55,032 bases of DNA, from IMG/VR virus record IMGVR_UViG_3300045020_000011, positions 1 to 55,032 of that record, one strand, 5' to 3'. This stretch comes from a virus. Lineage: Duplodnaviria > Caudoviricetes. Under the pieces are notes generated by a model that worked only from the letters and a program-made list of their open reading frames with translations, did not search any database and had not been told where the DNA came from. A program made the translations under genes and the position numbers. The stretch's first letter is position 1; each line of letters starts with the position of its first letter. Positions 16,219-44,897 of this stretch are shown here, piece by piece.

Positions 16219-16595
16219 TCCTTGGGTTCCTTCCAAAGATCATCAAGGTCGGGGCGGCGCTTCATAAAATAAGACAGAAACATCCAGCAACAGCCAACAT
16301 GATCAATATGGGGTAGGCCAGATTCGCCATCAATATACTCACCTTTCTTGATAGCCCCAATATGGCGCTCCAGAGCAGCAACCAACCGACTGTACGTAAT
16401 ACCTCCCCGCCAGTTGTGGGCAGCGTACTTCTTGGCACCAAAGGCAAGTACGGCAGCCAGCCCTTCCAGTGCCCAAGGATCGAGTAAATCCATCCGAGGT
16501 TTGTCGCTATCATACTTTAGTCCAGCGGGCTTTTTTATCAAGTCCATCAATGGGTGCATTTCATATTCCCGCATCAGTTCTTGTGTCTTGTCCAT
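16215..16595 (-). CDS. dATP/dGTP diphosphohydrolase domain protein (DUF5664)
   Basis: KYDSDKPRMDLL, FGAKKYAAHNW, ALERH, DGESGLPHIDH. Confidence 0.85.
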   Translation of the reverse strand: MDKTQELMREYEMHPLMDLIKKPAGLKYDSDKPRMDLLDPWALEGLAAVLAFGAKKYAAHNWRGGITYSRLVAALERHIGAIKKGEYIDGESGLPHIDHVGCCWMFLSYFMKRRPDLDDLWKEPKE

Positions 16596-16602
16596 TCTGT
16601 AT

Positions 16603-16803
16603 TTACTCGGAAAGGATAATAGATTGATCGGGGGAAGGTGGTTCAAGTCGTGCCAGACGATCATTTAAATCCAGGATAGCGGTTGCAAGGACATGGAATA
16701 CACTAGAGTTAGCGTGTTGCCAGTCGTTCAGTTGGCCTGACATTAGATTTGACTCAGCCCCCCTTACGAGCAGGGCGAGTTCTGCGTAGTCAATACGATC
16801 CAT
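16603..16803 (-). CDS. Hypothetical protein
   Basis: Operon packing. Confidence 0.5.
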   Translation of the reverse strand: MDRIDYAELALLVRGAESNLMSGQLNDWQHANSSVFHVLATAILDLNDRLARLEPPSPDQSIILSE

Positions 16804-20256: not shown

Positions 20257-20988
20257 TTATGCATACTTGAAGCCTCTGTCAACCTTTTTCATGTTCAGCA
20301 TGTCAGGGCCGACCTTGACCTCTCCGGCCAACGGTACATTCCACCCACACTTGAACACAAGGTTGAGGTTGTCAACAAGATCGTCAAACACGTCGTACAT
20401 CAGGTCAACCACCTGTGAGACATATTTCTTTGGTGCATCTACGACAATAGAATCGTGGACGGTCGAGATTAAAAAGACCGGTAAACCAAGCGAACGAAGA
20501 CGCCTCGCGAAGCTTATGCGGGCAATCATCATAACATCGGCACCAGTACCCTGTACCGGATAGTTTGTTAGCACTGTCCACGGAATCTTTACGTTTCCCC
20601 AATTGTCCCTCCCCAGAGGTATGCTCCATTGTCTTCCGGTTGGTCCCGTAATTGGTTCACCCCGTACCACGCTTTGACTCCACGCCACATGACATTCATG
20701 AATTCCTGCGTACTTAGCAAAGAACTTACGCCCAACTTCGTCCCAGTACTTGGGGTCGGTGGAGACGTGCATAAACGCCGGATCATTTGCAAAGCTGAAT
20801 CCACTTCCTCGGAATATTGTTCGGAAGAGATATATCTTTGCAATGAGTCTAGATGGTAGTTCAAAAGCCTTTTCGTTGAGCGAGTGCGTATCTTGGCCTT
20901 GCTTAACCTCCGTGATCCCAACTTGGTCTTGGCTAAGCTGGAGGATGGTACGCCATTCGAGTTGACTTGCATCACATGCGATAAGCAT
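20257..20988 (-). CDS. DNA polymerase family A, C-terminal part (palm/fingers)
   Basis: Motif A DASQLEWR, motif B RLIAKIYLF, NYPVQGTGAD, motif C VHDS. Confidence 0.92.
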   Translation of the reverse strand: MLIACDASQLEWRTILQLSQDQVGITEVKQGQDTHSLNEKAFELPSRLIAKIYLFRTIFRGSGFSFANDPAFMHVSTDPKYWDEVGRKFFAKYAGIHECHVAWSQSVVRGEPITGPTGRQWSIPLGRDNWGNVKIPWTVLTNYPVQGTGADVMMIARISFARRLRSLGLPVFLISTVHDSIVVDAPKKYVSQVVDLMYDVFDDLVDNLNLVFKCGWNVPLAGEVKVGPDMLNMKKVDRGFKYA

Positions 20989-22128
20989 TTAGTCATTGAA
21001 CCTACTTATGAAGATGTCTTGAGCGGCTCCGTCGAGATTCTGGAGGTTGGGGTTGCTGCTGCTGAGGCGACCGGTTTGTGCCACGCACTGGTTGAATTGT
21101 CCGTGCAACATTCCCTGCTCCCAGTTGCCATTGACATTTGCATTAAGTAACCCTCGATACGTCTTAGTGAGTAGAGAATCGAGTCTAACTTGTCGTTGGA
21201 TAAGCTCGATGATTCGCTTAGTAGCTCCTCGGGGACGCAGTTTAAGAAGAGTGTCTGCATTTGTCGCAAATACTCCTGGCTTTTTAAGCTCAGAACCTCG
21301 AAGGGGTTCGACCAGTCTAGGGAGTTCGTGTCCAATTTCTACCTTTTTATATTTTGGTTGTCCTGCTCGTTCACCTGTTTTGAAGAACCCAATATGCTCC
21401 TGACCTTCTGTCGTAATAGTCCCGCCATACAGAAAGGCAGACAACTGATCCCCAGACCCAAAATTAATAGGGATGCCAGGGTATATTCCAGATAGTTCAT
21501 CCGTGATCTGTTTAATCTCCTGTTCAATCTCTTGAGCGCGTTTATCACAAACCTCATGATCAAACCGAATCCCATTCCATTCCATTTCCTCAAGTATCAG
21601 TAGGTCCATGCACTGTAGGCGACACAATCGTTTCTGCTGCGGTGACATACACTCCTGTTGGCGTTGATACAAGCTCAACGTTAAGCGAGCGTCTTGTTCC
21701 GCATACTCTGCAAGTTCGTTCCAGGGTATGTCCTCCGTTTGGATTCCATTCTTCCAATACTTCTCCGCAATCACATCGATCTTGGTTCCTAAACCATAAC
21801 GTGCGCAAGATTCGTCCAGGCTTGGATATCTCCATGTTTGGTTACTCAGGATGAACTCTGCGACTTGGCAGCACCAGATTGGTTTGTCTCCCCAATCGAC
21901 TCCGAGTTTTCTAAGAACGTGGAGGTCGTATTTGAAATTGAAGCCAACGAGAATATCAGCCTGTCCAACTCGATTCGCAAGTTCAGCAATTGAGTTCTCG
22001 TCTGTCTTAGCTGCTCCCGTGTCTTTACTAGATGCCCAAGAATAGCAAATGTTTTTGAATCGTCTGTCAAAGGGATTCCCCTTATTCCATGTGTTGTTTT
22101 CAGTATCAATCGCTAGAGCATTAGACAT
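20989..22128 (-). CDS. DNA polymerase family A, N-terminal part (3'-5' exonuclease and thumb)
   Basis: ExoI DTE, ExoII FNFKYD, ExoIII YAEQD, TGRLSSSNPNLQN. Confidence 0.92.
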   Translation of the reverse strand: MSNALAIDTENNTWNKGNPFDRRFKNICYSWASSKDTGAAKTDENSIAELANRVGQADILVGFNFKYDLHVLRKLGVDWGDKPIWCCQVAEFILSNQTWRYPSLDESCARYGLGTKIDVIAEKYWKNGIQTEDIPWNELAEYAEQDARLTLSLYQRQQECMSPQQKRLCRLQCMDLLILEEMEWNGIRFDHEVCDKRAQEIEQEIKQITDELSGIYPGIPINFGSGDQLSAFLYGGTITTEGQEHIGFFKTGERAGQPKYKKVEIGHELPRLVEPLRGSELKKPGVFATNADTLLKLRPRGATKRIIELIQRQVRLDSLLTKTYRGLLNANVNGNWEQGMLHGQFNQCVAQTGRLSSSNPNLQNLDGAAQDIFISRFND

Positions 22129-25458: not shown

Positions 25459-25652
25459 TTCTCAAGTTCCCTAATCTTGTGTTGAAGTTCTGCGTTGATG
25501 GCTCGAAGCATATTATATTCGACAGTCAACTCCGTATATAGCTTTTCCCAATCACGTTCCAGATATCCCGCTTCATTAAGATAAAGGTGATCGGGTAATG
25601 GATGGCCCATCGCTACGGGGGAATCATATTTAGTCATTTTCAATCGCCACAA
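25455..25652 (-). CDS. Hypothetical coiled-coil protein
   Basis: Operon packing. Confidence 0.55.
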   Translation of the reverse strand: MWRLKMTKYDSPVAMGHPLPDHLYLNEAGYLERDWEKLYTELTVEYNMLRAINAELQHKIRELEK

Positions 25653-26325
25653 GGTCGCTGATCGGTGTCAGGAAGCTCAGACCATAGGGTACATCTGACA
25701 ACGGGCTGGCAGGTTGCACCAGTTCGGCAGAACCGATCACACACTGGTATAGAACGTCCACAGCAGGCCCGCCACTGTTACCCGGTAGTATCTGCCCATC
25801 GAACAGCACAAAGCCTTGTGCGTACTTCTTAGGCCCTGTAATGTCCGTTAGACTCACAACCGGATTGCCAACATGCCCGAACGACACACTCTTTGACCGG
25901 CCAAGCGGACCACCCATGACGACCAATTCTTCGCCGTAAGTTGGACTGAACGGACACACATCGAATCCACCCGGCCAGTTGATAGTCCTGTCATTTGTGG
26001 TGAGTGTCATGAGGTCAGGAGCAGACCCGAAGTTCTCGTCACCTTTCTTCCGAATATGGAACGGGTGCTTCTTACCATCCCCGAAGTCCACATGCAGAGT
26101 TTCAGTACCATCACCTTTGGAACAGTGTGCTGCGGTGACAATCTCATGCGTACCCTTCTTGACCCAACCACTACAGTACGTACCATCGTCCCCGGTGATA
26201 GACACAACACTATCGAGTTGCTGGAGAAGTGACGGCGTGGTGGTTGCTTCATACGACGTGTGGCCGAAAATCAACATCAACGTAATGAACGCCAGAGCAC
26301 CCAGCGCCGAAAAAGTTTTAAACAT
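25630..26325 (-). CDS. Membrane-anchored or secreted trypsin-like serine protease
   Basis: N-terminal hydrophobic helix; TAAHC, DL and GNSGG catalytic motifs. Confidence 0.88.
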   Translation of the reverse strand: MFKTFSALGALAFITLMLIFGHTSYEATTTPSLLQQLDSVVSITGDDGTYCSGWVKKGTHEIVTAAHCSKGDGTETLHVDFGDGKKHPFHIRKKGDENFGSAPDLMTLTTNDRTINWPGGFDVCPFSPTYGEELVVMGGPLGRSKSVSFGHVGNPVVSLTDITGPKKYAQGFVLFDGQILPGNSGGPAVDVLYQCVIGSAELVQPASPLSDVPYGLSFLTPISDLVAIEND

Positions 26326-26557: not shown

Positions 26558-26681
26558 AATGCTCCCTCAGTTTGGGAACGATTAGGTTTGCCATACGTTC
26601 CCTCAACTGTTGAGTATCATGAAACTCCCTTGCTACTGCTGTTACTTCATTAATGAGTAATGCTATCTCATGATCGTTCAC
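26493..26681 (-). CDS. Hypothetical protein with GxxEG repeats
   Basis: YGEGFDEGYTEGYEKGY; coupled to the primase stop. Confidence 0.55.
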   Translation of the reverse strand: MNDHEIALLINEVTAVAREFHDTQQLRERMANLIVPKLREHYGEGFDEGYTEGYEKGYRYEL

Positions 26682-27439
26682 TTCACCAGGTCCCTTATTG
26701 TTTTAATATCGTGCTCCTTTGGATCAGCTTCAGTCCAAACAACCCTGGTAGTAAGACCCAGGGCTGCGCCTTGCAGTGCTATCTTGGTTGCTTCATTACA
26801 CTTATCGTGGTCCAACCAAACAACCACTCTTTCATACATCTTCGCTAGCTGTGCTAGCTTTTCTTTTGACATCGTTGCACCAAAGCAAGGTACTCCGTCG
26901 TAGCCTGCGTAGCTGACTTTGATCCCGCTAATGCAGTCTTCAACAATGCAGCACGTGTCTCGATCTTTGCCTGTACTATATTTTGCAATAACCTTTTCTG
27001 GTGAACCTCCAGTAAAGAAGCGGAGTTTATGGGTTGTTCCTCGCTTGAAGTTACGGGCTTGCCACAGGACCACATCCGTACCTGCGCCATAAAATGTATA
27101 TAAGAGCTGCTCACGGCGGGGACTCCAGTAAACGTTATGTTCCATCAAGTTCCGTGGTTCCAGATCGTACTTCGTGATCCAGTCTACTACGGGTTTTGGA
27201 TAAAAAAGTACAGCGTCATCAGGATAGGATCGTACCGAATTGCCTTCTTTACTCCCCCCCAATCGTTCTGTAACCACTGGTCGTGAATACGGGTGTTCTC
27301 CCAATATCTCTGTGGGGCGTTGGTAGTACCCGCACCCGAAACAAAAGCCTGAACCCGAAGAGTAGAGCGCCAAGTTGTCCTTTGAGCCACACTTCGGACA
27401 GGCCGTATGCTTGAGAAAATGTGATTGTACGGCATGCAT
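26678..27439 (-). CDS. DNA primase (zinc-binding and TOPRIM domains), stand-alone
   Basis: CPKCGSKD...FCFGC, IVED, WLDHD, DPKE. Confidence 0.88.
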   Translation of the reverse strand: MHAVQSHFLKHTACPKCGSKDNLALYSSGSGFCFGCGYYQRPTEILGEHPYSRPVVTERLGGSKEGNSVRSYPDDAVLFYPKPVVDWITKYDLEPRNLMEHNVYWSPRREQLLYTFYGAGTDVVLWQARNFKRGTTHKLRFFTGGSPEKVIAKYSTGKDRDTCCIVEDCISGIKVSYAGYDGVPCFGATMSKEKLAQLAKMYERVVVWLDHDKCNEATKIALQGAALGLTTRVVWTEADPKEHDIKTIRDLVK

Positions 27440-27441
27440 TA

Positions 27442-27753
27442 TTACCTCTTCTTCTGCTTCGGAATGTGAGTGGCATTCGGTGGTGTCACCGTGATCTTCA
27501 TCACCTTCGGACAGCTATAATAATACTGTCCATTATCCGTGTTCATATCCCGACCATTTGGAACATCTGCCGTGTGAACTTGAATCGCGTTAGGTCTCTT
27601 TGCTTTTTCAATTACCTGTTGGGCGAGGTGCATTGATTGCTCGACATTAGGACAACTACAGTTAGGATTTTCACAATAACGATTGTTTCTCCATTCCTCG
27701 TATGTGAACTTTTCATTGCATTCCTTACACCGAACCAATCCGGGCCTACTCAT
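27442..27753 (-). CDS. Zinc-finger hypothetical protein
   Basis: CKEC...CENPNC; start re-assigned to ATG 27753. Confidence 0.55.
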   Translation of the reverse strand: MSRPGLVRCKECNEKFTYEEWRNNRYCENPNCSCPNVEQSMHLAQQVIEKAKRPNAIQVHTADVPNGRDMNTDNGQYYYSCPKVMKITVTPPNATHIPKQKKR

Positions 27754-27979
27754 AGTCGGCTCCAATTCCGGTATATCCAGTAAAGCCGAGATCATCGTGT
27801 TCATCATCGAGAATAGAATCATCACCAATCTCATCTGGTTCAATTACATCAGGAATATCGTCGGAGACAAAACTAAAACAGTGATCACACAGATCAATAA
27901 ATGTCCCAGACGTGCTGTACTTACGTGTTGATTCACGATCATTCAAGAGTTTGTTACAAGCAAGGCAACGCATCATCAT
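27746..27979 (-). CDS. Small zinc-finger protein with acidic C-terminus
   Basis: CLAC...CDHC; D/E-rich tail ending GADYE. Confidence 0.7.
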   Translation of the reverse strand: MMMRCLACNKLLNDRESTRKYSTSGTFIDLCDHCFSFVSDDIPDVIEPDEIGDDSILDDEHDDLGFTGYTGIGADYE

Positions 27980-28008: not shown

Positions 28009-28587
28009 TCAACGTTCGTTCAGGTCTGGGTCGTAAAACTCAAATGGTTCCGGATTAACTTGTACCTGATTTTGATTATTACGACGAAGGCGGGCCAGTG
28101 CATCATTAATCCGGCGCTGTTGCTCATTATCAGCTTGCGGCTGAACCGGTGCTGCCTGGGCTACGCCATTACCCCATCCCTGGACTGCTGGCCAATCGTA
28201 CATCACATACTGTTGTTGAGGTGCATTGTCCACGACCTTAGCCGTGACCTTCGGCTTGGCCTTCGCCTGTTCTCTCATCTTACGTGCCGTTACTTCTGGC
28301 GGTTCGATGGAGACAACTACATCTTCTTCGGTCATCCGATCAGGAAAGTTCTTGGCCTTCTCGCTAAAGATGATGATCCGGCCATTGATCGGACTCGGGA
28401 TAGCTTCTACCCCATCATTCGTTTCAAGGACGAGCAACGGTTGCTTGAGCTTCGCCGTGCCCACGTCTGCTGGAAGTATATGGAAGCACTCGCACAGCTT
28501 CTCTTCGATACACTTCTTGGTAAATCCAATACTCATCATGCCATCTGGCTGTGTTTCACACCAGATATCACCGTAATTCGTTTTCAT
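28009..28587 (-). CDS. Glycine cleavage H / lipoyl-domain-like protein lacking the lipoyl lysine
   Basis: IGFT...LPADVGT...LVLETNDGVEAIPSPINGRI...NFPD aligns by eye with GcvH (GIT...LPEVG...VESVKA....PVSGE....P). Confidence 0.7.
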   Translation of the reverse strand: MKTNYGDIWCETQPDGMMSIGFTKKCIEEKLCECFHILPADVGTAKLKQPLLVLETNDGVEAIPSPINGRIIIFSEKAKNFPDRMTEEDVVVSIEPPEVTARKMREQAKAKPKVTAKVVDNAPQQQYVMYDWPAVQGWGNGVAQAAPVQPQADNEQQRRINDALARLRRNNQNQVQVNPEPFEFYDPDLNER

Positions 28588-28760
28588 TTCTTCAAGTCCG
28601 TAAGAAGAAGTTTAGCCTTCTCATATAGAGAAGTGTCCTTCGAGCCGAAACCCCCCATCAAATGGGATGCTCCAGCCGCAATGATCTGGCGAAACTCAAT
28701 AAGTTCTTCCGCCGTTTCAATAACAATTGTGACAGGTGCAAATTCTTTTGTGATCTTCAC
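28584..28760 (-). CDS. Hypothetical protein (58 aa, GTG start)
   Basis: GTGA and ATGA coupling on both sides; MKITKEFAPVTIVIETAEEL... Confidence 0.6.
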   Translation of the reverse strand: MKITKEFAPVTIVIETAEELIEFRQIIAAGASHLMGGFGSKDTSLYEKAKLLLTDLKK

Positions 28761-29584
28761 TTGAGCTTCTCCACGAACGCTTGCGCGTACTTGTCTACGG
28801 TTGTGCCTTCGAGACCAGGCGCGGTATTAACTTCAAGACAGTAACACCAATTCCGTTTGGCGTTATAAAGGAGGTCACATGCTCCGAAGTCGAGGCCCAA
28901 TTCTTGCACTGCCCGGATCGCCATCTCTCTAAGTCCAGTAGGCTCGGTAATGTCTTCACGACAATAGACCCATCCGGTGTGATGATTACGTACCTGAAAG
29001 TTGGCTTCACCTTCGTAGTCGTTCCGCTTACGCTTTTCTTGTACATCGATCACTTCTCCAAAGGCAACATGAACTCGAAATTCCTTTTGCTTCTTAACAT
29101 ACTGCACATAAAGAGGCGCAGGAACCACATCTTCCACCTTGCCAGCAAGAACAATCCCATCACCACTGTGACCACTGAGCTTAGTACGACAAACAACAGT
29201 ATGTCCGGAGTTAATCCATTGCTTAGCAACGTTATGATCGACTGTAAATTCAGGGATACGTATGCCATCCTTTCCTTTCAGGAGATTAAAAGTACTAAGC
29301 TTGTTACTTGCATTACAAACAGCTTGCGCTTTGTTTACAACTACTATGGGTTCTCGAACATCTAGGTTGTTGGAAAGCCAACTGCTGTTCCCCCAATTAA
29401 TAATTTTGTGCCACTCACGCGGAACAAACGTCGGGTTAGGCCGATCAGTGAATAGTCGGCGAACTTTGTACCCCAGGTGTTCCCCCATCTTTCTTGCTAG
29501 TTCCCTCGCTGAGTTCGACCCGATTTTGTACGGGACGATGACGCAGGGGGCTCTCCCCAGCTTCACGGGCTTGTTTGAAGGCAT
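28757..29584 (-). CDS. ATP-grasp ligase (RimK-like, phiEco32 type)
   Basis: IINWG, ASNK, GHSGDGIV, EFRVHV, LGLDFGACD, LEVNTAPGL; AGGAG RBS before ATG 29584. Confidence 0.92.
   Translation of the reverse strand: MPSNKPVKLGRAPCVIVPYKIGSNSARELARKMGEHLGYKVRRLFTDRPNPTFVPREWHKIINWGNSSWLSNNLDVREPIVVVNKAQAVCNASNKLSTFNLLKGKDGIRIPEFTVDHNVAKQWINSGHTVVCRTKLSGHSGDGIVLAGKVEDVVPAPLYVQYVKKQKEFRVHVAFGEVIDVQEKRKRNDYEGEANFQVRNHHTGWVYCREDITEPTGLREMAIRAVQELGLDFGACDLLYNAKRNWCYCLEVNTAPGLEGTTVDKYAQAFVEKLK
29289..29310. repeat. 22-bp imperfect palindrome (dispersed motif)
   Basis: AAAGTACTAA-GC-TTGTTACTTG. Confidence 0.7.
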
Positions 29585-31139
29585 CTTTTTCTTCTCCTGA
29601 CAGTGCTTGTTCGACACAACTTGAACACATTAACTTAACAACGTTCTCCGGAAATGCCATTCCCTTCCCGAGAGTGGACGTGAATGATACGGAAGTGAAC
29701 TTCGGATTGGCTTCGTGCATCTTCTTGCCACACTTCATGCAGGTACAATTGCAGACACCATATCCCCATGCGGCCAACGGTATAATTACCTTGTTGTGTG
29801 TAGCAACGACGCTTGCCAATCGCATATCTGCAACGTAAACGCTAGTCCCTCCTACCGTGTTCGTAACATACAGAATGCGGCCAGTACAATACTTACCAAC
29901 CATCGCCGCAGGGTCTGCTTCATCGGGAAAGCAACCAATAACATCGACAAGAGACTCACCCGGTTCGTGCAGCTTGCCACGAAACTTGAAGTGCTGCTGT
30001 GCCAGGGTAATCTCATGAGGCTTGAACAATACCATCCGTCCTTTCATCAAGGTTGGATGTTGAATCTGAATCCGCCGCGTATTGTTCTCCGCATCTCGAT
30101 CAACTTCACTGGCTTTCTTCTTGGGAACGAGGGTAAGGCCAGACGAATTCGGTGGACTTAGATGGTTCTCGCTCTCGCTCTTGCTGCTGTCGTTCTGCCC
30201 ATCTTTTACCTGCGTGAGCGCACAACTTTTCGAGCCCATCCCCTTGGTTTCGACGGACTCTTTTATGATTAAAGGGCAGTCATCACTCGACCTCCCTTCG
30301 CTCATGTACTCCCAGTAATCTCCTTCGAGAGAATCTTCGACCAAATCTTTGGTCACGTTGTTGGGCTGAGTAACCGTTTCCTTGTAGTCCCGCCCCCACT
30401 TGCCATTCCCCTTGTACGTCGTGGAATAGCTGGAATAGGAGACGACCGGCTTCTCAAGCTTACGAGAATCCATCTTGCCCTTCTGATCGAATTCAAGCAA
30501 TTCAAATGTGGGTACTTCAACCACATTCTCGATCTTCCGGTTCTGACGGGACAACGGCAACGCCGCAATCATCGGTTCGCTCGACAACACAAACATGTTG
30601 TCAGATTCAATGATAAACAACGGACGTTCATCATTCCGTACTGCAAAGAGCTTCTGCTTCTCCGTGTCATACCACACAAGAGCATATGCCCCACGCAGCT
30701 TGGGCAATACTTCTTCGATGGGACTCTCTGACAACGCATGCGCAATCGCGTTACTGTCCACGTCAAACTGCTTGTCAGACAGCTTGCTATGGTCCCACAG
30801 AGTACCGTTGTGGACGAGAATGATGTTGTTCTCGACGAATGGGTGTGCATTCTCCGTTGTTACAGCACCCTTCGTTGCTGCGCGATTGTGCCCAATCACC
30901 AGCCGACCACGACTCACCATCGAAGTGCGAAAGTCCGCCCATTCCTTCGTGCGGAATAGATTGAACGGGTTGCTACCAAGCTTCAGCACTTCTGCTTGCT
31001 TGTTGCGGAATGTGGTAAAGACTCCCGTTGAATCCTTACCACGCAGCGAGTTGACGATCAGCAATTGCTCCAGCAAATCGGCATCACGTTGCCAGAAACC
31101 TTGATCAGTTCGAGCGATCAGTCCAATAATGCCGCACAT
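29445..31139 (-). CDS. Class II (Ntn) glutamine amidotransferase with long C-terminal extension
   Basis: MCGIIG, RGKDSTG, GHNRAAT, NAHPF, HNGT, VDS, RNDERPL. Confidence 0.92.
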   Translation of the reverse strand: MCGIIGLIARTDQGFWQRDADLLEQLLIVNSLRGKDSTGVFTTFRNKQAEVLKLGSNPFNLFRTKEWADFRTSMVSRGRLVIGHNRAATKGAVTTENAHPFVENNIILVHNGTLWDHSKLSDKQFDVDSNAIAHALSESPIEEVLPKLRGAYALVWYDTEKQKLFAVRNDERPLFIIESDNMFVLSSEPMIAALPLSRQNRKIENVVEVPTFELLEFDQKGKMDSRKLEKPVVSYSSYSTTYKGNGKWGRDYKETVTQPNNVTKDLVEDSLEGDYWEYMSEGRSSDDCPLIIKESVETKGMGSKSCALTQVKDGQNDSSKSESENHLSPPNSSGLTLVPKKKASEVDRDAENNTRRIQIQHPTLMKGRMVLFKPHEITLAQQHFKFRGKLHEPGESLVDVIGCFPDEADPAAMVGKYCTGRILYVTNTVGGTSVYVADMRLASVVATHNKVIIPLAAWGYGVCNCTCMKCGKKMHEANPKFTSVSFTSTLGKGMAFPENVVKLMCSSCVEQALSGEEKDAFKQAREAGESPLRHRPVQNRVELSEGTSKKDGGTPGVQSSPTIH

Positions 31140-32054
31140 TTAGGCAACTCCCTGTTGGTTAGCTTGCTTCTTGAATTTGAAGAACGGTGCATCCAATGAC
31201 ACTTCACGAGCCAATGCATCCAACACATTAGGCTGGCCAAACGCGAACTTCACCATGTTGGTGGAATCCCGGATATCCACGTAGTCCATATACTTCATGT
31301 ACTGCACATCATCGCCAAAGATTTCACGCAACAACGATGGATAATCCGTTGTGTCGCCCAAAGTTGATAGTCTCTCTCGGTGCTCACTAACCGTTTTGGA
31401 ATTCACCCAATCGCACAGACGACAGATCAACCTGATCCACGTACAGACCTTGGTAACATCAAACGTGCCATGCATATGTCTGAATTCGATGGTGCCCAAC
31501 GATGACAATGGATGGATGTTGAGTCCGGTGTACTTGGACCACTGCGCTACGCGCTCAGGCAAACGTGCTCGCTCGAAGTTCGCGAGGATGTTCGACTCAT
31601 TCACGGGCACACAGTAAATGTTCTTCGCTCGACCTCGACCAGTGAACTTATAGAACAACGGTTCGAACGCTGTGTACCACATCACCAAGTTCTTGACTTG
31701 ATCGACTTGCCACTTCTGCATGTCAGCGTGAATGTGAATCGACGTGCGCGGACTGAAGCAGCACTCTTGTGACAGCAGGTTGTTCATCAAATGGTGCAGC
31801 GCAAATGGTGCCATGTCTGCCTCAATCGGCTGACTCACGAACTCTGCGCCGTTGTTGCGCAACGAACCATCATCCTTGAGATTCCACACCATCGTTGATA
31901 CACCCTGCTTCGCGGCGTAGTTCTCAACCTCAACTTCGATGCCAATCACTTGCTTCGACGGAATAACCGGCAGGTCTTTCACTGCCTTATACTTCGCCGC
32001 CATAGATGCTGGCGTTACTGCACGAAGATCAAACGTTTCCAGAATGGTTGTCAT
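31140..32054 (-). CDS. Putative amidoligase (glutamine synthetase / GCS-fold COOH-NH2 ligase)
   Basis: GIEVEVE, DGSLR, EFVS, SIHIH, KYTGLN, TIEFRHMHGT. Confidence 0.88.
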   Translation of the reverse strand: MTTILETFDLRAVTPASMAAKYKAVKDLPVIPSKQVIGIEVEVENYAAKQGVSTMVWNLKDDGSLRNNGAEFVSQPIEADMAPFALHHLMNNLLSQECCFSPRTSIHIHADMQKWQVDQVKNLVMWYTAFEPLFYKFTGRGRAKNIYCVPVNESNILANFERARLPERVAQWSKYTGLNIHPLSSLGTIEFRHMHGTFDVTKVCTWIRLICRLCDWVNSKTVSEHRERLSTLGDTTDYPSLLREIFGDDVQYMKYMDYVDIRDSTNMVKFAFGQPNVLDALAREVSLDAPFFKFKKQANQQGVA

Positions 32055-32665
32055 AGGAAATGCTTCATCAAGAGAGGAGAATAAATCTTCTCCAGACATT
32101 GCGTGATATGACCAGTCTTGTCACACTTCGCTACCGGATGGGTGTAATGAAACACCAGATACTCAGCCTTGGCTGTAACCGGCAAACAAATGGATAGGTT
32201 ATCTTCCAATGCAACTGAACGCACTTCTCCTTTATTAAGCATCCGTACTGCGTCCGTTACAGAATATACCTTGTGTTGAAAGGCACTCTGTATCGTGTTG
32301 AAGTCAATGATGCGTACCTGTCCACCAACGCGACGCGTCGTGTCCAAGATTGCACAGTTATCAGCACAGATACCACGCCGATACTGCCGCAACGGACGAC
32401 GATGGAACAGACACGAATTCCCTTCGTGTTGAAACACTCCCGTAACAGGATAACGAAACTTGATGGCATGCCCTTCCGATCCCATATTCAAGGACAAGCT
32501 ACCATACTCCCGTGTATCCACATAGATCACCCCGAGCTTCGTGGGGTGGCTCTCGATGTTGACAACACGTGCCAACACTTCCTTCTGTTCAGCGTGGATA
32601 TCCAGCCAGACAAACGTACCGGCGTAACGCCTACGAAAGTCGGCAATGATTTGATCGTTGGTCAT
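32051..32665 (-). CDS. Hypothetical protein within the ligase cluster
   Basis: Coupled between the two amidoligases; RRPLRQYRRG. Confidence 0.75.
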   Translation of the reverse strand: MTNDQIIADFRRRYAGTFVWLDIHAEQKEVLARVVNIESHPTKLGVIYVDTREYGSLSLNMGSEGHAIKFRYPVTGVFQHEGNSCLFHRRPLRQYRRGICADNCAILDTTRRVGGQVRIIDFNTIQSAFQHKVYSVTDAVRMLNKGEVRSVALEDNLSICLPVTAKAEYLVFHYTHPVAKCDKTGHITQCLEKIYSPLLMKHFL

Positions 32666-32668
32666 GGT

Positions 32669-33436
32669 TCACAGATCGAATTCGGCCTTGAGTTCGGCCA
32701 ACAGTTCCAGACTGCTACGATTGATACACGCACGAATCTTCATGCCCTGATCTTCCGTGAATGCTTCACCAGCCATCGCACGTTCCACCGCCTTGTCCGT
32801 CTGGTCCCAGACCCACGCGATAAGATCATCGTTCTCAATCCAGGCATTGGATGCCGTGCGGTACTCCACACCATACTTCTTCGGACGGAATGCACCCGGT
32901 TTGCCATACAACTTCCTCCGATCTTTGTCGTTGTCGAACTCCAACATCATGCAACCCACATACAAATCCATCCACTGCACGACGAGACACTTATCCACGA
33001 ACTCCGGTATCTCGATATGGATATGGCCTCCCGCCGAACGCAGGTTAGGATTCTGTGCTGCCGGACGCGGATTCATACGTCCACCTTCCCACGCATTATA
33101 GTCAGGCTCACAGCCGAACGTCTGCGCCGCTTCCGTTTGCAACTGATCGTCATCGAACACAGCACTGGGTTTCAACGCCACAGTAAGGCCGAGTTGCTTC
33201 GCCTTTTCGGCCAACCAATCCTTGTTCTTCCTGATGTTGTCAATAAACATTTGCTTACTGCTGCACGGCGGCGTGTTGAATTCGACAGCAACGTTGTCTT
33301 CTTGTACCGCGTTGCCAGCATCGTCGATGGGCATGGGATCATCTTTCGTACCTCCGATCAGGCCGACGGAAGAAATAAACTTGCCTTCGGCATTAACGAG
33401 AAAGACTTCGGGATCACATCCAAGGTTTGTCAACAT
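32669..33436 (-). CDS. phiEco32-like COOH-NH2 ligase type 2
   Basis: LGCDPEVFL, QEDNVAVEFN, FGCEPD, RSAGGHIH, RRKLYG, GVEYRT. Confidence 0.92.
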   Translation of the reverse strand: MLTNLGCDPEVFLVNAEGKFISSVGLIGGTKDDPMPIDDAGNAVQEDNVAVEFNTPPCSSKQMFIDNIRKNKDWLAEKAKQLGLTVALKPSAVFDDDQLQTEAAQTFGCEPDYNAWEGGRMNPRPAAQNPNLRSAGGHIHIEIPEFVDKCLVVQWMDLYVGCMMLEFDNDKDRRKLYGKPGAFRPKKYGVEYRTASNAWIENDDLIAWVWDQTDKAVERAMAGEAFTEDQGMKIRACINRSSLELLAELKAEFDL

Positions 33437-33437
33437 G

Positions 33438-34148
33438 TCAAATCTCCAGGTATTTGCGGGTAACTTCCATGCAGTACTGCACGAACGGATCAGTCAACGG
33501 CTTGCGGTGAAACTCGGGGTGTCCTTGGATTGCAAGACCCTTGATCGTCGGGAACCACACCACTTCGGGTTCATGATGCATGTGCATCGGCTCGTAGTCA
33601 CTGTTATCGCCGACCACATACTTGTCCGACCGGCGATTGGTAGACCACGCAATCAGCTTGTGCTCCACGTCATACGGATACATCATCTGGTGATGCACCG
33701 ATGAAGTCATGATTTCACGGCCATCATCCGTTGTCATAGGATGGGAAATGCCATGATTATTGACATGCTGAATAAGAAAACCACCAGCAAGAGCACATAC
33801 AAGTTGAGCGCCTCGGCAGATTCCCAGAATTGGGATGCCTCGACTGATCGCGAACTTCGCCGCGTTGACCTCGACGCGATCACGGACTGATAGATGCTCA
33901 GTAGCACCAGTATAGGTACTAACAGCATGCCCATAAATACTAGGGCTAATGTCAGCACCACCCCAAATAACAAGTGCATCGATATCCGCACCAGCCGCAA
34001 TATCGGACGGCTCCAACTCGACGCCGTTAGGAAACACTTGATCGAATGGCTCGTGAGTGCCTGTGCCATACCCGAGATAGCCAAGCGTGAGAACTTTCTT
34101 CGGGGTACTAACATTGTTACTCTCCTTACTAACTGTAATGTCAGACAT
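33438..34148 (-). CDS. Class I glutamine amidotransferase / peptidase C26 (gamma-glutamyl hydrolase)
   Basis: GGADISP, GICRGAQL, HHQ, QGHPEF (Cys-His-Glu triad). Confidence 0.9.
   Translation of the reverse strand: MSDITVSKESNNVSTPKKVLTLGYLGYGTGTHEPFDQVFPNGVELEPSDIAAGADIDALVIWGGADISPSIYGHAVSTYTGATEHLSVRDRVEVNAAKFAISRGIPILGICRGAQLVCALAGGFLIQHVNNHGISHPMTTDDGREIMTSSVHHQMMYPYDVEHKLIAWSTNRRSDKYVVGDNSDYEPMHMHHEPEVVWFPTIKGLAIQGHPEFHRKPLTDPFVQYCMEVTRKYLEI
34102..34123. repeat. 22-bp imperfect palindrome (dispersed motif)
   Basis: GGGGTACTAA-CA-TTGTTACTCT. Confidence 0.7.
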
Positions 34149-34523
34149 TTACTCTGCTCCATTCGTAAGAACATATGCTTCAATGGTATTACCGGTATTG
34201 GCATTAACCCACTTACCGATAAACTTAACATCAGGTTCAGCCTTGACTAACTTGCGTAAGATGTTTGCCTCATACCACAAGGTTCCCTTACGCTTAACAA
34301 AGTTAAAGATGATTGGACGAGTGCCAGTATGATAACCCTCCTTTGCTCGTTCTCGCATCTTCGCGATTGCTTTTGTCCACGCCTCATGATAAGAATCAGC
34401 ATGGACATTCTCACAACCTGACCAGTCATCAGCTTCTTCGTGCCGAAAATCACCCGACTCAAAGAAGCCACAGCAGGTTGGCAATTGATTCAAATCAAAT
34501 GAAACAACTTTCTTCTTTGACAT
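34149..34523 (-). CDS. Hypothetical protein (CCG motif)
   Basis: Operon packing. Confidence 0.7.
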   Translation of the reverse strand: MSKKKVVSFDLNQLPTCCGFFESGDFRHEEADDWSGCENVHADSYHEAWTKAIAKMRERAKEGYHTGTRPIIFNFVKRKGTLWYEANILRKLVKAEPDVKFIGKWVNANTGNTIEAYVLTNGAE

Positions 34524-42232: not shown

Positions 42233-42261
42233 ATCTTATGCTATCTTAATCACTTTGTCAA
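42233..42261 (-). promoter_or_regulatory. Leftward sigma70 promoter TTGACA-17-TAAGAT
   Basis: Minus strand TTGACA aagtgattaagatagca TAAGAT. Confidence 0.8.
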
Positions 42262-42310
42262 GTACTTTGTTGTAGTTTTGGTACAACAGAGGTAGAACAG
42301 CAAATATTAC

Positions 42311-42339
42311 TTGACAAGTCCATTAAGAGTGTATAAGAT
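42311..42339 (+). promoter_or_regulatory. Rightward (late arm) sigma70 promoter TTGACA-17-TAAGAT
   Basis: TTGACA agtccattaagagtgta TAAGAT. Confidence 0.8.
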
Positions 42340-42402
42340 AGAAGGTCTGTTGTGAAAGTTGTTGACAGTTAACATCTTTTGTGGTAGTGGTTTACCACCG
42401 TG

Positions 42403-43145: not shown

Positions 43146-43383
43146 TGGGACTAGAGACTACAGTTACGACAAGAAATACGAATCCAGCCCTAAACAACGT
43201 GCAGCCCGAGTCGAACGTGATCTCGCTAGACGAGAACTGTCGAAAGAAGGCAAGGTTTCTAAGGGCGATGGCAAGGATGTTGACCATATCAAGCCGGTAT
43301 CTAAGGGTGGTACTAACAAGCGAACCAATCTTCGAGCTATCTCCGCAAGTGCTAATCGCGCGAAGGGAAATCGCAGCAAATGA
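43126..43383 (+). CDS. HNH endonuclease (packaging-associated)
   Basis: GDGKDVDHIKPVSKGGTN...NLR...ANR. Confidence 0.85.
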   Translation: MPRKNPDGTRDYSYDKKYESSPKQRAARVERDLARRELSKEGKVSKGDGKDVDHIKPVSKGGTNKRTNLRAISASANRAKGNRSK

Positions 43384-44897
43384 AGATCAATGCGGAAGTG
43401 GTAGCAGGCTTTGTAGGAAGCATCCTTGCTCCGACATTTGAAGATAGCTGTGCTTCCCCCGACTTTCACAAGGAAATGTGGCAACTATGCTGCTCAACCA
43501 ACAAATTTGTTGCGATAGCTGCGCCTCGGGGTCATGCCAAGTCCACTGCGGTGACTCTTGGTTACGGTCTGGCTACGCTACTCTTCCGGGAACGGAAATT
43601 TATGTTGCTGGTATCAGATACGGAAGCGCAAGCATCACTGTTTCTGGGCAACATCAAGAATGCACTACAAGAGAACACCCAACTGATCGAACTGTTCGGC
43701 CTGAAGAAGAATGATAAGGGCCTAGTCCAGTTCGTAAAAGACAGTGAAACCGATATCGTCGTGGAATTCAATGATGGTCATCGATTCCGGATCATAGCTA
43801 AGGGTTCTGAACAGAAACTTCGTGGATTACTCTGGAATAACTCCCGTCCTGACATTATCATCGGTGACGACATGGAGAACGATGAACTGGTGATGAACAA
43901 AGAACGTCGTACCAAGTTCAAGAAGTGGTTCAAGAATGCCCTTCTTCCTTGCCGTTCTGATCATGGTATTGTCCGGATTGTTGGTACGATCCTGCACATG
44001 GATGCGATGCTTGAGAACCTCATGCCCCGTCCATATGACAAGAAGACAGTTACCGAAGACCTAAAACAGTACAGTACTCGCCGTGGTATGTGGACCTCAG
44101 TTAAGTATCGTGCCCATACAGACGATTTTAAGGCCCTTCTGTGGCCTCAGAAGAAGAGTGCTGATGAGTTCAAGATGCTTCGTGATGAAGCCTTCAGAGA
44201 CGGAACACAAGATGGATACAGTCAAGAATACCTTAACATCCCTATTGACGAATCGACCACTTATTTCAGACGGGCGGATTTCCTCCCTGTTCGAGAGGAA
44301 GACCTCAAGAAACCCGTGCGGTACTATGTTACAGCCGATCTGGCTATCAGTGACAAAGAAACGGCTGATTACTCAGTATTTGTCGTTGGTGCTGTCGATG
44401 AAGATAAGAGGATTCAAATACGGAATGTCATACGTGAACGCATGGATGGTCGAGAGATTGTTGACACCATACTTGCGCTCCAGAAGCTTTACGAACCTGA
44501 GTGTATAGGAATTGAAGAAATGCAGGTCTCCAAGGCCATTGGGCCATTCCTTCGGGAAGAAATGATCAAGCATAACAACTATATTTCCCTATACCCATTA
44601 AAGCATGGTGGTAAGGACAAGATAACCAGAGCAAGATCAATTCAAGCACGTATGCGTGCGCAAGGATGTAAATTCGACAAGTCGGGTGATTGGTATCAAC
44701 CCTTCGAGGACGAATTGATGCGGTTCCCACGTGATAAGCATGACGATCAGGTGGACGCATTTAGTTACCTTGGCCTTATGCTTGATGTAGTAGTTGAAGC
44801 TCCAACGAAAGATGAACTTGAAGATGAGGCTTACGCAGAAGAGTATCAAGCCTCTGGTCTGGCCGATAAAGGCCGTAGCGAGATAACGGGGTACTAA
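43380..44897 (+). CDS. terL: Terminase large subunit
   Basis: Walker A APRGHAKST, Walker B IIGDDME, VGTILH, ADLA, HDDQVDA. Confidence 0.95.
   Translation: MKINAEVVAGFVGSILAPTFEDSCASPDFHKEMWQLCCSTNKFVAIAAPRGHAKSTAVTLGYGLATLLFRERKFMLLVSDTEAQASLFLGNIKNALQENTQLIELFGLKKNDKGLVQFVKDSETDIVVEFNDGHRFRIIAKGSEQKLRGLLWNNSRPDIIIGDDMENDELVMNKERRTKFKKWFKNALLPCRSDHGIVRIVGTILHMDAMLENLMPRPYDKKTVTEDLKQYSTRRGMWTSVKYRAHTDDFKALLWPQKKSADEFKMLRDEAFRDGTQDGYSQEYLNIPIDESTTYFRRADFLPVREEDLKKPVRYYVTADLAISDKETADYSVFVVGAVDEDKRIQIRNVIRERMDGREIVDTILALQKLYEPECIGIEEMQVSKAIGPFLREEMIKHNNYISLYPLKHGGKDKITRARSIQARMRAQGCKFDKSGDWYQPFEDELMRFPRDKHDDQVDAFSYLGLMLDVVVEAPTKDELEDEAYAEEYQASGLADKGRSEITGY

Follow-up and report, generated by a model that had tools for sequence, protein, structure and literature searches.

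The 'amidoligase' cluster of phages of the phiEco32/LUZ24/PA11 type was reportedly defined through comparative genomics by Iyer, Abhiman, Burroughs and Aravind in 2009 (Mol Biosyst 5:1636), a study from which the Pfam families PF14395 and PF12224 are also said to stem. Among better known pathways, those built on a gamma-glutamyl handle use a ligase of GS/GCS type together with a hydrolase of GATase fold, such as PuuA/PuuD in putrescine catabolism and EgtA/EgtC in ergothioneine synthesis, and ATP-grasp ligases of the RimK/LysX type act on protein carboxylates, namely of ribosomal protein S6 and of the amino-group carrier LysW. The clusters of other phages come with a GGCT, and in the LUZ24-like phage UFV-P2 the gene order, as given in the accessible part of its description, is COOH-NH2_lig, a hypothetical protein of ~186 aa, amidoligase, GATase and ATP-grasp, followed by the primase (PMC3890496). 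The searchable literature on the phage amidoligase cluster identifies no product, in keeping with what the first-pass annotation of the present DNA had said of it.

The window, i.e. the whole stretch of 55,032 nucleotides analysed here (IMG/VR record IMGVR_UViG_3300045020_000011), encodes eight co-directional minus-strand genes at 28009-34148. The region is very probably a member of the conserved cluster known from phiEco32, LUZ24 and PA11, transcribed with the middle and replication genes of a podovirus-like phage of ~55 kb. The first-pass annotation had recorded these genes at the same positions and read them as a phiEco32-type phage operon of amide-bond-forming enzymes, which the gene families and the synteny support; its family calls also held, as PHROGs agree with Pfam for the five enzymes and the GcvH call was recovered through profile and structure. 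The tight coupling it had described is evident from the short gaps and the stop/start overlaps in the sequence, with intergenic distances of 1, 3 and 0 nt at three gene pairs and 4-nt ATGA or GTGA overlaps joining the 204-aa protein to the amidoligase, the ATP-grasp ligase to the 58-aa ORF (orf58), and orf58 to the GcvH-like gene. Besides, the 3' end of the class-II GATase gene overlaps the likely start of the ATP-grasp gene by 140 nt, which is unusual. The coupling is not specific to the cluster, as an equally tight array continues into the primase gene without a strong terminator; no terminator-like site with more than four G-C pairs was found on the minus strand from 38.2 kb to 25.5 kb, and the primase, helicase and polymerase genes lie directly downstream. 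No integrase was found among the ORFs scanned in the record and the phage appears strictly lytic, and a search of 50,697 phage records returned no nucleotide-level similarity to it.

Comparison of 45 related loci revealed all five enzymes together with the 204-aa protein in 29, and several of the loci without the full set are cut by contig ends. The genes are thus co-conserved as a unit, as had been anticipated, and the core is of six genes and not five, comprising the C26 protein, COOH-NH2 ligase, 204-aa protein, Amidoligase_2, Ntn GATase and ATP-grasp ligase. The 29 complete loci show three gene orders (21, 7 and 1 loci), in the second of which the class-II GATase is no longer beside the amidoligase; the COOH-NH2 ligase, 204-aa protein and amidoligase are always contiguous. 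A primase gene comes after the cluster in 26 of the 45 loci. Amidoligase homologues were detected by tblastn in 327 phage records, with Gram-negative and Gram-positive hosts including Pseudomonas, Escherichia, Vibrio, Aeromonas, Arthrobacter and Bacillus, and synteny with the cluster was observed in the cultured Alcaligenes phage vB_Af_QDWS535.

Three of the core members are ligases assigned through Pfam and PHROG, and the first-pass claim that the catalytic motifs of all five enzymes are intact is upheld by conservation among homologues. The 255-aa phiEco32-type COOH-NH2 ligase type 2 (32669-33436, minus strand), a GCS2/YbdK-like carboxylate-amine ligase, matches PF14395 COOH-NH2_lig (2.2e-8, 34.1 bits, above the cut-off of 25) and PHROG 3815 (4.9e-71), and its residues E10, E52, E110, H138, H140, E191 and R193 are kept in 41-42 of 42 homologues. 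The Amidoligase_2 protein, a GS-like carboxylate-amine ligase (31140-32054, minus strand), likely starts at ATG 32054, which overlaps the upstream stop as ATGA, rather than at 32099, where the longest ORF (31140-32099, 319 aa) begins. It matches PF12224 (3e-11) and PHROG 7469 (2.3e-36, with the alignment from residue 16), and E55, E57, E86, H122, H124, E205 and R207 are kept in all 39 homologues. The RimK-family ATP-grasp ligase (28757-29584, minus strand) likely starts at ATG 29584 with a GGAG 9 nt upstream, the longest ORF (28757-29617, 286 aa) running from GTG 29617. It matches Pfam RimK (4.6e-7), PHROG 2599 (5.5e-76), the PDB RimK entries 5zct and 4iwx (1.5e-5) and, under their cut-offs, NCBIfam rimK_fam and MptN (2e-11), and K95, E168, R170, K184, D237, E251 and N253 are invariant in 35 sequences.

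The two remaining enzymes are of GATase folds. The class-I GATase fold/peptidase C26 protein (33438-34148, minus strand, 236 aa) was found in 36 of the 45 loci and matches Pfam Peptidase_C26 (3.9e-18), GATase (3.2e-9) and PHROG 7218 (1.9e-29), with 3fij and 7d4r as the closest PDB chains. Its triad Cys111-His210-Glu212 is kept in 32-33 of 33 homologues. Among solved or named proteins, those closest to the C26 protein are C26 hydrolases of gamma-glutamyl amides (Lin1909, SpuA-type and gamma-glutamyl-CDP-amidate hydrolase, the last being the top NCBIfam match, far under its cut-off). The Ntn protein (29445-31139, minus strand, 564 aa) opens with a class-II GATase domain (residues 1-~260); the linker behind it is poorly conserved, and the C-terminal region is rich in Cys. 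Pfam GATase_6 covers residues 72-188 only (6.2e-19) and PHROG 4736 residues 1-259; alignment with the GlmS N-domain displays the Cys nucleophile (MCG) and the HNRAAT, HNG and D-S motifs, and C2, R86, N111, G112 and D128 are kept among homologues. In an alignment of 37 homologues every column of at least 85% conservation falls within residues 2-187 and none lies beyond residue 187, i.e. there is no conserved synthase domain. A search of the ESM Atlas with residues 345-530 gave matches of TM<0.5 only, with OB-like hints, and NCBIfam gave a weak EgtC match among matches to GlmS, AsnB and PurF.

The 204-aa protein (32051-32665, minus strand) had been listed as an unknown protein, and its family still has no match in Pfam, PHROG or NCBIfam; it is no mere passenger, as iterative search located it in 36 of the 45 loci, always between the two GS-like ligases, and the joint presence of the five enzymes and this protein in 29 loci makes it the sixth core member. 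It has a conserved R-x-P-x-R-Q motif (R89) and a structure model (pLDDT 91), for which no PDB match at E<=1e-3 was found and BFVD matches are solely uncharacterised phage proteins. The top VIA result (Z 6.3, residues 1-104 only) is to small Tudor/Sm-like barrels. The protein is a putative non-enzymatic beta-barrel protein.

Downstream of the ATP-grasp gene, orf58 and the gene for the GcvH-fold protein form a lineage-specific module that goes with this ligase. The 58-aa ORF (28584-28760, minus strand) is coupled on both sides by the GTGA and ATGA overlaps and has no Pfam, PHROG or NCBIfam match; its homologues take the same position in loci L003, L004, L050, L051, L083, L086, L091-L094 and L096. 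The 192-aa GcvH-like protein (28009-28587, minus strand), assigned as a lineage-specific accessory through profile, model and synteny, has a GcvH-fold domain (residues 1-~110) and a tail of low complexity, with a helix predicted at 153-174. Pfam GCV_H alone falls under its cut-off (E=0.0017, 18.7 against 22.2 bits), as does NCBIfam. A search found 156 representative relatives at E<=1e-3. A profile built from 141 sequences matched E2p lipoyl domains (7.3e-9) and GcvH (1.2e-5) in PDB, and the AlphaFold model (pLDDT 98 over residues 1-110) had GcvH chains as all of its top 22 Foldseek matches (best E 6e-6, prob 1.0), so the GcvH-like assignment is confirmed. In its hairpin motif E55-T-N-D58, D58 aligns on the lipoyl lysine, and this position is Asp in 104 and Glu in 21 of the 141 relatives, because of which the protein cannot be lipoylated; it cannot carry lipoate or biotin. 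The relatives were met solely on phage or metagenome contigs beside an ATP-grasp gene, and two peptide patterns found none in 185,579 species genomes. As for co-occurrence with the cluster, a check proposed earlier, the gene does occur there, but in only 5 of the 45 ligase-selected loci (one lineage plus two divergent copies), always after the ATP-grasp gene where there is enough upstream sequence; the cluster overall therefore does not need it. Further downstream by 29 nt and immediately ahead of the primase module, orf77 (27746-27979, minus strand) encodes a 77-aa Zn-ribbon (CxxC...CxxC) with an acidic tail, which may belong either to the amidoligase cluster or to the replication genes. It is present in 22 of the 45 loci, with 43 ORF matches over all loci examined; C5, C8 and C31 are invariant, C34 is nearly so and the C-terminus is not conserved. 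No PDB relative was found, and 13 of 27 members match DUF7685 weakly.

Our best explanation as a whole, covering cluster identity, core, mechanism and accessories, is held with middling confidence, and the mechanism itself, a glutamyl-type build-and-trim ligation pathway read from the sequences, is put forward tentatively as a possible one. The three ATP-dependent carboxylate-amine ligases would work in series and assemble on some acceptor a short amide or isopeptide chain that contains glutamate. A macromolecule (protein or cell-envelope precursor) would be a likelier acceptor than a free metabolite, the one basis for this preference being small beta-barrel-like domains whose matches are weak. 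The two GATase-fold enzymes would act on gamma-glutamyl amide bonds, trimming or removing the gamma-glutamyl handle in the manner of PuuD and EgtC, or would release ammonia from glutamine, and the 204-aa protein may be, as a guess, a substrate-binding adaptor for its two flanking ligases. The glutamyl specificity is suggested by the named relatives of the ATP-grasp protein (the alpha-L-glutamate ligases RimK, MptN and CofF), by the YbdK/GCS2 carboxylate-amine ligase family of the COOH-NH2 ligase, by the PuuD/SpuA-type and gamma-glutamyl-CDP-amidate hydrolases related to the C26 protein, by the weak EgtC match of the Ntn protein and by the GGCT that goes with the cluster in other phages; it is a lead and not a result, as all NCBIfam matches are far under the curated cut-offs.

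The ligases might instead amidate or glutamylate the stem peptides of peptidoglycan, or the cytoplasmic precursors of these, and so block superinfection or tune lysis, which we consider unlikely. The pair MurT/GatD, a ligase and a GATase that amidate lipid II, offers an analogy, and the occurrence of the cluster in phages of Gram-negative and Gram-positive hosts agrees with a universal target like peptidoglycan. However, the cluster has no Mur-ligase, transpeptidase or envelope-targeting domain, a signal peptide or membrane segment is not evident in the eight translations, and an apparently strictly lytic phage has little time to remodel the wall for excluding competitors. The envelope proposal for phiEco32 is credited to Iyer et al. 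2009 in the accessible parts of PMC10580990 and PMC11318856, which report no published test of it.

As both GATase-fold proteins retain all residues required for plain glutamine hydrolysis, they may donate ammonia, and the first-pass annotation had proposed that each feeds ammonia to one GS-like ligase for two amidations, the ATP-grasp ligase adding a peptide bond and the GcvH-like protein serving as covalent carrier. In the gene order of the window each GATase does adjoin one ligase and the GcvH-like gene is translationally coupled to the ATP-grasp gene through orf58, but the adjacency is broken in 8 of the 29 complete loci, so that the pairing is unstable across the three gene orders. The feeder role is also not favoured because gamma-glutamyl-amide hydrolases are among the closest named relatives of both GATase-fold proteins. 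The sequences argue against channel-coupled amidotransferases as well, with no conserved domain after the Ntn domain and a variable GATase gene order, and no GS/GCS-type ligase is known to require a glutaminase partner. The carrier role is weakened by the missing hairpin lysine and by the 40 of 45 related clusters that do without the gene, and the model in full is improbable. Hypermodification, in which an amino-acid-derived group is placed on DNA bases or the nucleotide pool to evade restriction, appears just as doubtful. The adjoining replication genes, here and in the loci with a primase after the cluster, would suit it, as would the weak resemblance of partner domains to small nucleic-acid-binding barrels (Sm/Tudor-like and OB-like) and the association of amidoligase and glutaminotransferase Pfam domains with thymidine-hypermodification genes in viral contigs, as given in the accessible portion of PMC8989533. 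Against this, no thymidylate-synthase-like dUMP hydroxymethylase was found in the whole record, and the ORFs scanned nearby showed no kinase or glycosylase-like family. DNA modification is not known from phiEco32 and LUZ24, two well-studied carriers. A mere increase in glutamine/glutamate turnover in aid of phage replication is very hard to credit as the role of these genes, as the five enzymes all stay under the cut-off of every housekeeping NCBIfam equivalog and such a boost would need no order-conserved unit of six genes with a phage-only non-enzymatic member, even though amidoligase and GATase are listed as AMGs in the accessible parts of PMC10580990 and PMC10945688.

Compared with known systems, the build-and-trim reading draws on PuuA/PuuD and EgtA/EgtC, whose fold pairs (GS/GCS-like ligases with a C26 and an Ntn amidohydrolase) recur here, with PuuD/SpuA-type PDB and NCBIfam neighbours for the C26 protein and the EgtC match for the Ntn protein. 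The cluster differs from them in scoring far under the equivalog cut-offs, in adding a third, RimK-type ligase and a phage-only putative adaptor, and in having no other enzyme of those pathways. Among solved structures RimK comes closest to the ATP-grasp ligase, and the small proteins immediately downstream are acidic-tailed or carboxylate-presenting, i.e. the GcvH-like protein through D58 and the Zn-ribbon orf77; orf77 has no sequence match to LysW in PDB, and its C-terminus is not conserved. The GcvH-like protein shares with GcvH/lipoyl domains, including Firmicutes GcvH-L (PDB 5a35), the fold (target-normalised TM ~0.55-0.68 over the top 22 Foldseek matches), the hairpin glutamate and the S-P-x-x-G turn, but it has Asp in place of the lipoyl lysine, a long low-complexity C-terminal tail, and nearly invariant C34 and H36 that stand opposite non-Cys/His residues in two GcvH alignments. 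With the phiEco32/LUZ24/PA11-type cluster the locus has in common the same four Pfam families above their cut-offs and the C26 protein and, as far as the accessible descriptions go, the conserved ~200-aa protein between both GS-like ligases and the gene order followed by the primase in UFV-P2/LUZ24-like phages and vB_Af_QDWS535. The amidoligase reaches at best 36% protein identity to a cultured phage, against ~51-52% for each of the C26 protein, COOH-NH2 ligase and ATP-grasp ligase. The record also differs in its lack of a GGCT/AIG2 gene, an absence remarked earlier that holds at Pfam level, PF06094 giving only a 13.9-bit sub-threshold match within the portal gene and PF13772 none. The slot after the ATP-grasp gene is filled here by orf58 and the GcvH-fold protein, and the locus thus represents a new instance of a widespread phage cluster of peptide-bond-forming enzymes, extended by a protein shaped like a lipoyl carrier without the lipoyl lysine.

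On its plus strand, the complete-looking record of 55,032 bp has late genes of podovirus type, among them those for the terminase (43380-44897), the portal (44897-47188) and an internal virion protein of 1600 aa that contains a lysozyme domain (8166-12968), and its early and middle genes form a long minus-strand array from ~42.5 kb down to 13.7 kb. At the switch between early minus and late plus genes, divergent promoter-like sites (TTGACA-17-TAAGAT on both strands) were located at 42233-42356. Three strong terminator-like hairpins were present on the minus strand at 40.7, 39.4 and 38.3 kb, and as the scan of this strand from 38.2 to 25.5 kb gave no terminator-like site with more than four G-C pairs, the amidoligase cluster (28009-34148, minus strand) is probably co-transcribed with the replication genes. 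These genes lie 3' of the cluster on the same strand and begin, after a zinc-ribbon ORF, with the primase (26678-27439), a 231-aa trypsin-like serine protease with a hydrophobic N-terminus (25630-26325; Trypsin_2, 4.6e-12) sitting amid replication genes, an HNH endonuclease and a DnaB-type helicase, followed by a split family-A DNA polymerase, an exonuclease, a metallophosphoesterase, a MazZ-like domain protein, a DUF4406 protein and ribonucleotide reductase. The polymerase (20257-22128) consists of two in-frame ORFs parted only by a TAA (20989-20991) and then an ATG (20986-20988), and the consulted sections of PMC3890496 also describe a two-part polymerase for LUZ24-like phages. At 15928-16664, the gene with the dGTP_diPhyd_N domain (N-domain of MazZ-like dATP/dGTP diphosphohydrolase, 8.3e-30) adjoins that of the DUF4406 nucleoside-deoxyribosyltransferase-like protein (5.9e-28), both adjoining ribonucleotide reductase; no PurZ-like gene was found among the ORFs scanned in the window.

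The cluster itself comprises eight contiguous and co-directional ORFs, all found where the first-pass annotation had placed them, and the identities it had given to the five enzymes were confirmed by Pfam and PHROGs. The COOH-NH2 ligase type 2 scored 34.1 bits against PF14395 (cut-off 25) and matched PHROG 3815 at 4.9e-71, and the Amidoligase_2 (PF12224, 44.1 bits), class-II glutamine amidotransferase (GATase; 68.8 bits) and RimK-like ATP-grasp (30.1 bits) were all over their Pfam cut-offs. The catalytic motifs, described earlier as intact, were kept in the window as well as in homologues from related loci. The class-I GATase retains Cys111, His210 and Glu212, and the class-II (Ntn) GATase retains Cys2, Arg86, Asn111, Gly112 and Asp128 in the alignments with its homologues and with GlmS, so that both have the catalytic residues of glutamine hydrolysis. 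The Glu/His/Arg sets of both GS/GCS-like ligases are kept among homologues, and the ATP-grasp, which aligns with RimK (5zct), has K95, E168, R170, K184, D237, E251 and N253 invariant across 35 sequences. Its score of 43.8 bits against the RimK family TIGR00768 lies below the cut-off of 143.4, and glutamate as the residue that it adds is putative. The absence of a gamma-glutamyl cyclotransferase (GGCT) also held, as no GGCT gene was found in any frame of the record; the search of the whole 55 kb for AIG2/GGACT families gave a PF06094 match of only 13.9 bits inside the portal gene and none for PF13772.

The junctions between the genes refined two of the starts. The amidoligase most likely starts at ATG 32054, where the sequence ATGA combines this start with the stop codon of the preceding gene for a 204-aa protein, and the ATP-grasp, by its start context, most likely starts at ATG 29584 with GGAG 9 nt upstream. 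With this start it overlaps the last 140 nt of the class-II GATase gene (29445-29584), perhaps as a long overlap that is conserved between the two genes, or else as a possible frameshift fusion. The tblastn alignments of these two proteins overlap in relatives too, for instance in locus L047 at 9114-9295. Overlaps of 4 nt join the ATP-grasp to a 58-aa ORF (orf58, 28584-28760) and orf58 to the GcvH-like gene (28009-28587). Directly upstream of the class-I GATase gene lies a 124-aa protein (34149-34523) with no assigned family, which is kept in the close lineage and occurs as a tandem duplicate in loci L003 and L004 (7468-8254).

No match to the 6.1-kb region was obtained in a nucleotide search of 50,697 phage records. 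The amidoligase protein has homologues in 327 of these records, 111 of them from Pseudomonas, 93 from Escherichia and 21 from Vibrio phages, among others, the best being that of Alcaligenes phage vB_Af_QDWS535 (OK172329), where the gene order is the same with the primase last. Co-conservation was assessed in 45 loci, namely 44 IMG/VR loci selected by the COOH-NH2 ligase alone and the Alcaligenes phage locus, whose ORFs were labelled by iterative search with the window proteins. Apart from the COOH-NH2 ligase, present in all 45 by selection, the amidoligase was found in 39 loci, the class-II GATase and the ATP-grasp in 37 each, and the class-I GATase and the 204-aa protein in 36 each. All five enzymes occurred together in 29/45 loci, and all five along with the 204-aa protein likewise in 29/45, so that the genes are conserved as a unit, and the lack of such co-conservation, which the first-pass annotation had named as a refutation, was not observed. 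Several of the incomplete loci stop at a contig edge. Four others have neither the class-I GATase nor the 204-aa protein; of these four, two lie on contigs >120 kb and three have much longer ORFs for the class-II GATase and the amidoligase. Another five hold the class-I GATase and the COOH-NH2 ligase only. Among the 29 complete loci, the order class-I GATase, COOH-NH2 ligase, 204-aa protein, amidoligase, class-II GATase and ATP-grasp was found in 21, an order with the class-II GATase moved to second place in seven, and another variant in one; the triplet of COOH-NH2 ligase, 204-aa protein and amidoligase was unbroken in all.

This co-conservation and the never-broken triplet make the 204-aa protein a core member of the cluster, and the earlier count of five core enzymes with one additional unknown protein has to be revised to six core genes. 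The protein had no match in Pfam, PHROGs or NCBIfam, and the alignment of 32 homologues revealed an R-x-P-x-R-Q motif. Its AlphaFold model (pLDDT 91) gave nothing at E<=1e-3 in a Foldseek search of PDB, good matches to uncharacterised phage proteins only in BFVD, and, in a wide VIA-align search, Tudor/Sm-like barrels as the best match, at a Z of 6.3 that is within the common range of the tool and applies to residues 1-104 only. We infer an adaptor role without enzymatic activity, serving the ligases on either side.

The two GATase-fold proteins had been proposed as ammonia donors to one ligase each, and this pairing is unsupported, since gene adjacency is unstable and no column past residue 187 of the Ntn protein is conserved at >=85%. 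The nearest solved relatives of the class-I protein in PDB are peptidase C26 members such as Lin1909 and SpuA-type 'probable glutamine amidotransferases', and its best NCBIfam match is gamma-glutamyl-CDP-amidate hydrolase, with PuuD also listed and all scores far below the cut-offs. The Ntn protein aligns with the glutaminase domain of GlmS, beyond which come a linker of low conservation and then a region rich in Cys. Across 37 homologues, the columns conserved at >=85% all fall within residues 2-187, Pfam and PHROG coverage reaches from residue 1 to ~260 only, and residues 345-530 gave weak OB-like hints (TM<0.5, from a poor model) against ESM Atlas. Neither the conservation of the Ntn protein in these homologues nor the gene orders, between which the neighbours of both GATase genes differ, pointed to a conserved synthase domain that is either part of a glutaminase protein or its constant partner. 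Because of the C26 relatives, the poorly conserved C-terminal part of the Ntn protein and the unstable adjacency, stand-alone enzymes that act on gamma-glutamyl amide bonds are the likelier reading, ahead of dedicated glutaminase-ligase pairs. Plain glutamine hydrolysis by both proteins is still a tenable reading.

In the Puu and ergothioneine pathways, a GS/GCS-type ligase working with a C26 or Ntn hydrolase adds and removes a gamma-glutamyl handle, and this pairing of folds is common to those pathways and the cluster. The named relatives of the ATP-grasp in PDB and NCBIfam, RimK, MptN and CofF, all add alpha-L-glutamate. From the GATase relatives, the shared fold pairing and these glutamate-adding relatives, the cluster may be read as a glutamyl-type ligation pathway that would build on a putative acceptor and then trim.

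A role in DNA hypermodification may also be suggested, as the cluster adjoins replication genes and PMC8989533 reports that genes for thymidine hypermodification co-associate with those for amidoligases and glutaminotransferases. However, the record has no thymidylate-synthase-like gene; the dUMP hydroxymethylase family (thymidylate-synthase fold, PF00303) gave no match at E<=1 in its six frames. Besides, none of the ORFs neighbouring the cluster had a kinase-like Pfam match.

The position after the ATP-grasp is where lineages differ. In the window it holds orf58 and the GcvH-like gene. In 16 other related loci (L006, L008-L010, L012-L017, L019, L020, L022, L034, L041 and L043), the ATP-grasp is directly followed by an uncharacterised family of ~240 aa (220-260 aa; for example 10797-11534 in L008) that is unrelated to the GcvH-like protein. 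This family has no Pfam match, no homologue in the window and two copies in L014 and L017. Ten ORFs following the ATP-grasp in other loci gave nothing significant in Pfam. In LUZ24-like phages, this slot is occupied by GGCT according to the accessible text of PMC3890496. Since the occupant changes with the lineage, the slot is a variable accessory position.

The GcvH-like protein was difficult to place by its own sequence, which scored 18.7 bits against Pfam GCV_H (cut-off 22.2) and 16.2 bits against NCBIfam GcvH (cut-off 117). Used as a single query, it gave nothing in phage records or IMG/VR by tblastn and pattern searches, and a word-indexed protein search returned two relatives; an exhaustive search was needed, which yielded 156 representative relatives at E<=1e-3, 126 of them at E<=1e-10, all sharing the first ~100 residues. 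A search with the ECWHILP motif as a degenerate DNA pattern gave 27 matches, all of them out-of-frame chance hits, and was discarded; two peptide patterns found no relatives in the species-genome collection. The profile of 141 relatives matched the E. coli E2p lipoyl domains (7.3e-9) and GcvH proteins (best 1.2e-5), and the model of residues 1-110 (pLDDT 98) had only GcvH chains among its top 22 Foldseek matches (best E 6e-6), GcvH-L of S. pyogenes being among the top ones. Together, the profile and the predicted model make the assignment of a GcvH (barrel-sandwich hybrid) fold sound. In this fold, Asp58 of the hairpin E55-T-N-D58, whose Glu is invariant, aligns on the lipoyl lysine. Among the 141 relatives, this column holds Asp in 104 and Glu in 21, and the six commonest residues, covering 138, do not include Lys. 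Judged by this alignment, the protein cannot carry a lipoyl or biotinyl group, and its proposed role as a carrier is unsupported in that form.

Its association with the cluster, which the first-pass annotation had proposed to check across phages, is strict where the gene is present and narrow in range. In eight IMG/VR loci it precedes the zinc-ribbon ORF, a 133-aa ORF and the primase, and where the contig extends upstream, the ATP-grasp is found on that side, orf58 being present or absent. Of 18 metagenome loci, 14 have the ATP-grasp directly upstream, and the other four have <200 nt of upstream sequence. These loci were found with a narrower alignment of close relatives, outside which lie distant ones of ~30-40% identity, and as they belong to one lineage with ATP-grasps 57-81% identical, their synteny is not separable from descent. 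In the ligase-selected set, the family HMM detected the gene in only 5/45 loci (L001, L003, L004, L005 and weakly L006), one of them the Alcaligenes phage (L001, OK172329), where an unannotated 94-aa ORF at 10981-11265, between the annotated ATP-grasp and the next gene, matched at E 1e-13. The literature searched contained no paper linking a GcvH-like protein with these phage clusters, and the GcvH-fold accessory with an acidic lipoyl-site residue is lineage-specific and previously unreported.

A bolder proposal makes the GcvH-fold protein a carrier of a new kind, a lipoyl-type swinging-arm domain with a carboxylate in place of the lysine at the hairpin tip. This Asp or Glu would be activated by the RimK-family ATP-grasp or a GS-like ligase and an amide-linked chain built on it. 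The acidic residue in 125/141 relatives, a hairpin Glu that is invariant and the strict place after the ATP-grasp agree with this, but Tyr or Leu stands in for the Asp in the two copies that diverge most, and we regard the proposal as a long shot. The complex prediction for the ATP-grasp and the GcvH-like domain (scores of 0.01 and 0.02, the mark being 0.32; controls absent) speaks neither for nor against binding. If the proposal were true, the modification would be a mirror image of lipoylation, functionally akin to the amino-group carrier LysW, and the acceptor in the slot would differ in other lineages, being the ~240-aa family, for instance, or missing altogether. The zinc-ribbon ORF itself (orf77; 77 aa, 27746-27979, minus strand), found between the cluster and the primase in 22/45 loci, has a CxxC...CxxC ribbon with conserved cysteines, an acidic tail with varying C-terminal residues and a weak Pfam match to DUF7685 only, and its likeness to a LysW-type carrier is one of architecture, with no sequence support and no LysW among its PDB matches at E<=10.

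Taken together, the first-pass interpretation was right in kind, as a phage biosynthetic cluster, and wrong or unsupported on three points, namely how many genes make up the core, the pairing of glutaminases with ligases, and the carrier. With homologues in 327/50,697 records by amidoligase alone, the cluster ranks among the most widespread function-unsolved enzyme sets of tailed phages, and Pseudomonas and E. coli phages that are candidates for therapy are among its bearers. The non-enzymatic, phage-only sixth core member belongs in any reconstitution of the cluster, the resemblance of the GATase-fold pair to gamma-glutamyl-amide hydrolases more than to ammonia donors changes the products to look for, and the GcvH-fold protein, with its acidic lipoyl site and coupling to the ATP-grasp, offers a concrete, small and testable candidate substrate. 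The window does not solve the role of the cluster, a phage system already described with its function unsolved. PMC10580990 and PMC11318856 credit Iyer et al. 2009 with the proposal that superinfection is prevented through cell-wall modification by the enzymes of phiEco32, and these 2023-2024 papers describe the function as still to be explored. The literature search, with subscription journals mostly outside its reach, found no experimental study of the product.

Among known systems, the nearest are the clusters of phiEco32 and LUZ24 type. In the LUZ24-like phage UFV-P2, the genes shared with the window keep its order, given in PMC3890496 as COOH-NH2_lig, a 186-aa hypothetical protein, amidoligase, GATase, ATP-grasp, AIG2/GGCT and primase. 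Such clusters and the window have four Pfam families in common (COOH-NH2_lig, Amidoligase_2, class-II GATase and RimK-like ATP-grasp), whereas the AIG2/GGACT partner, frequent among them without being universal, is absent from the window. The window adds a distant new member to the phiEco32/LUZ24-type amidoligase clusters.
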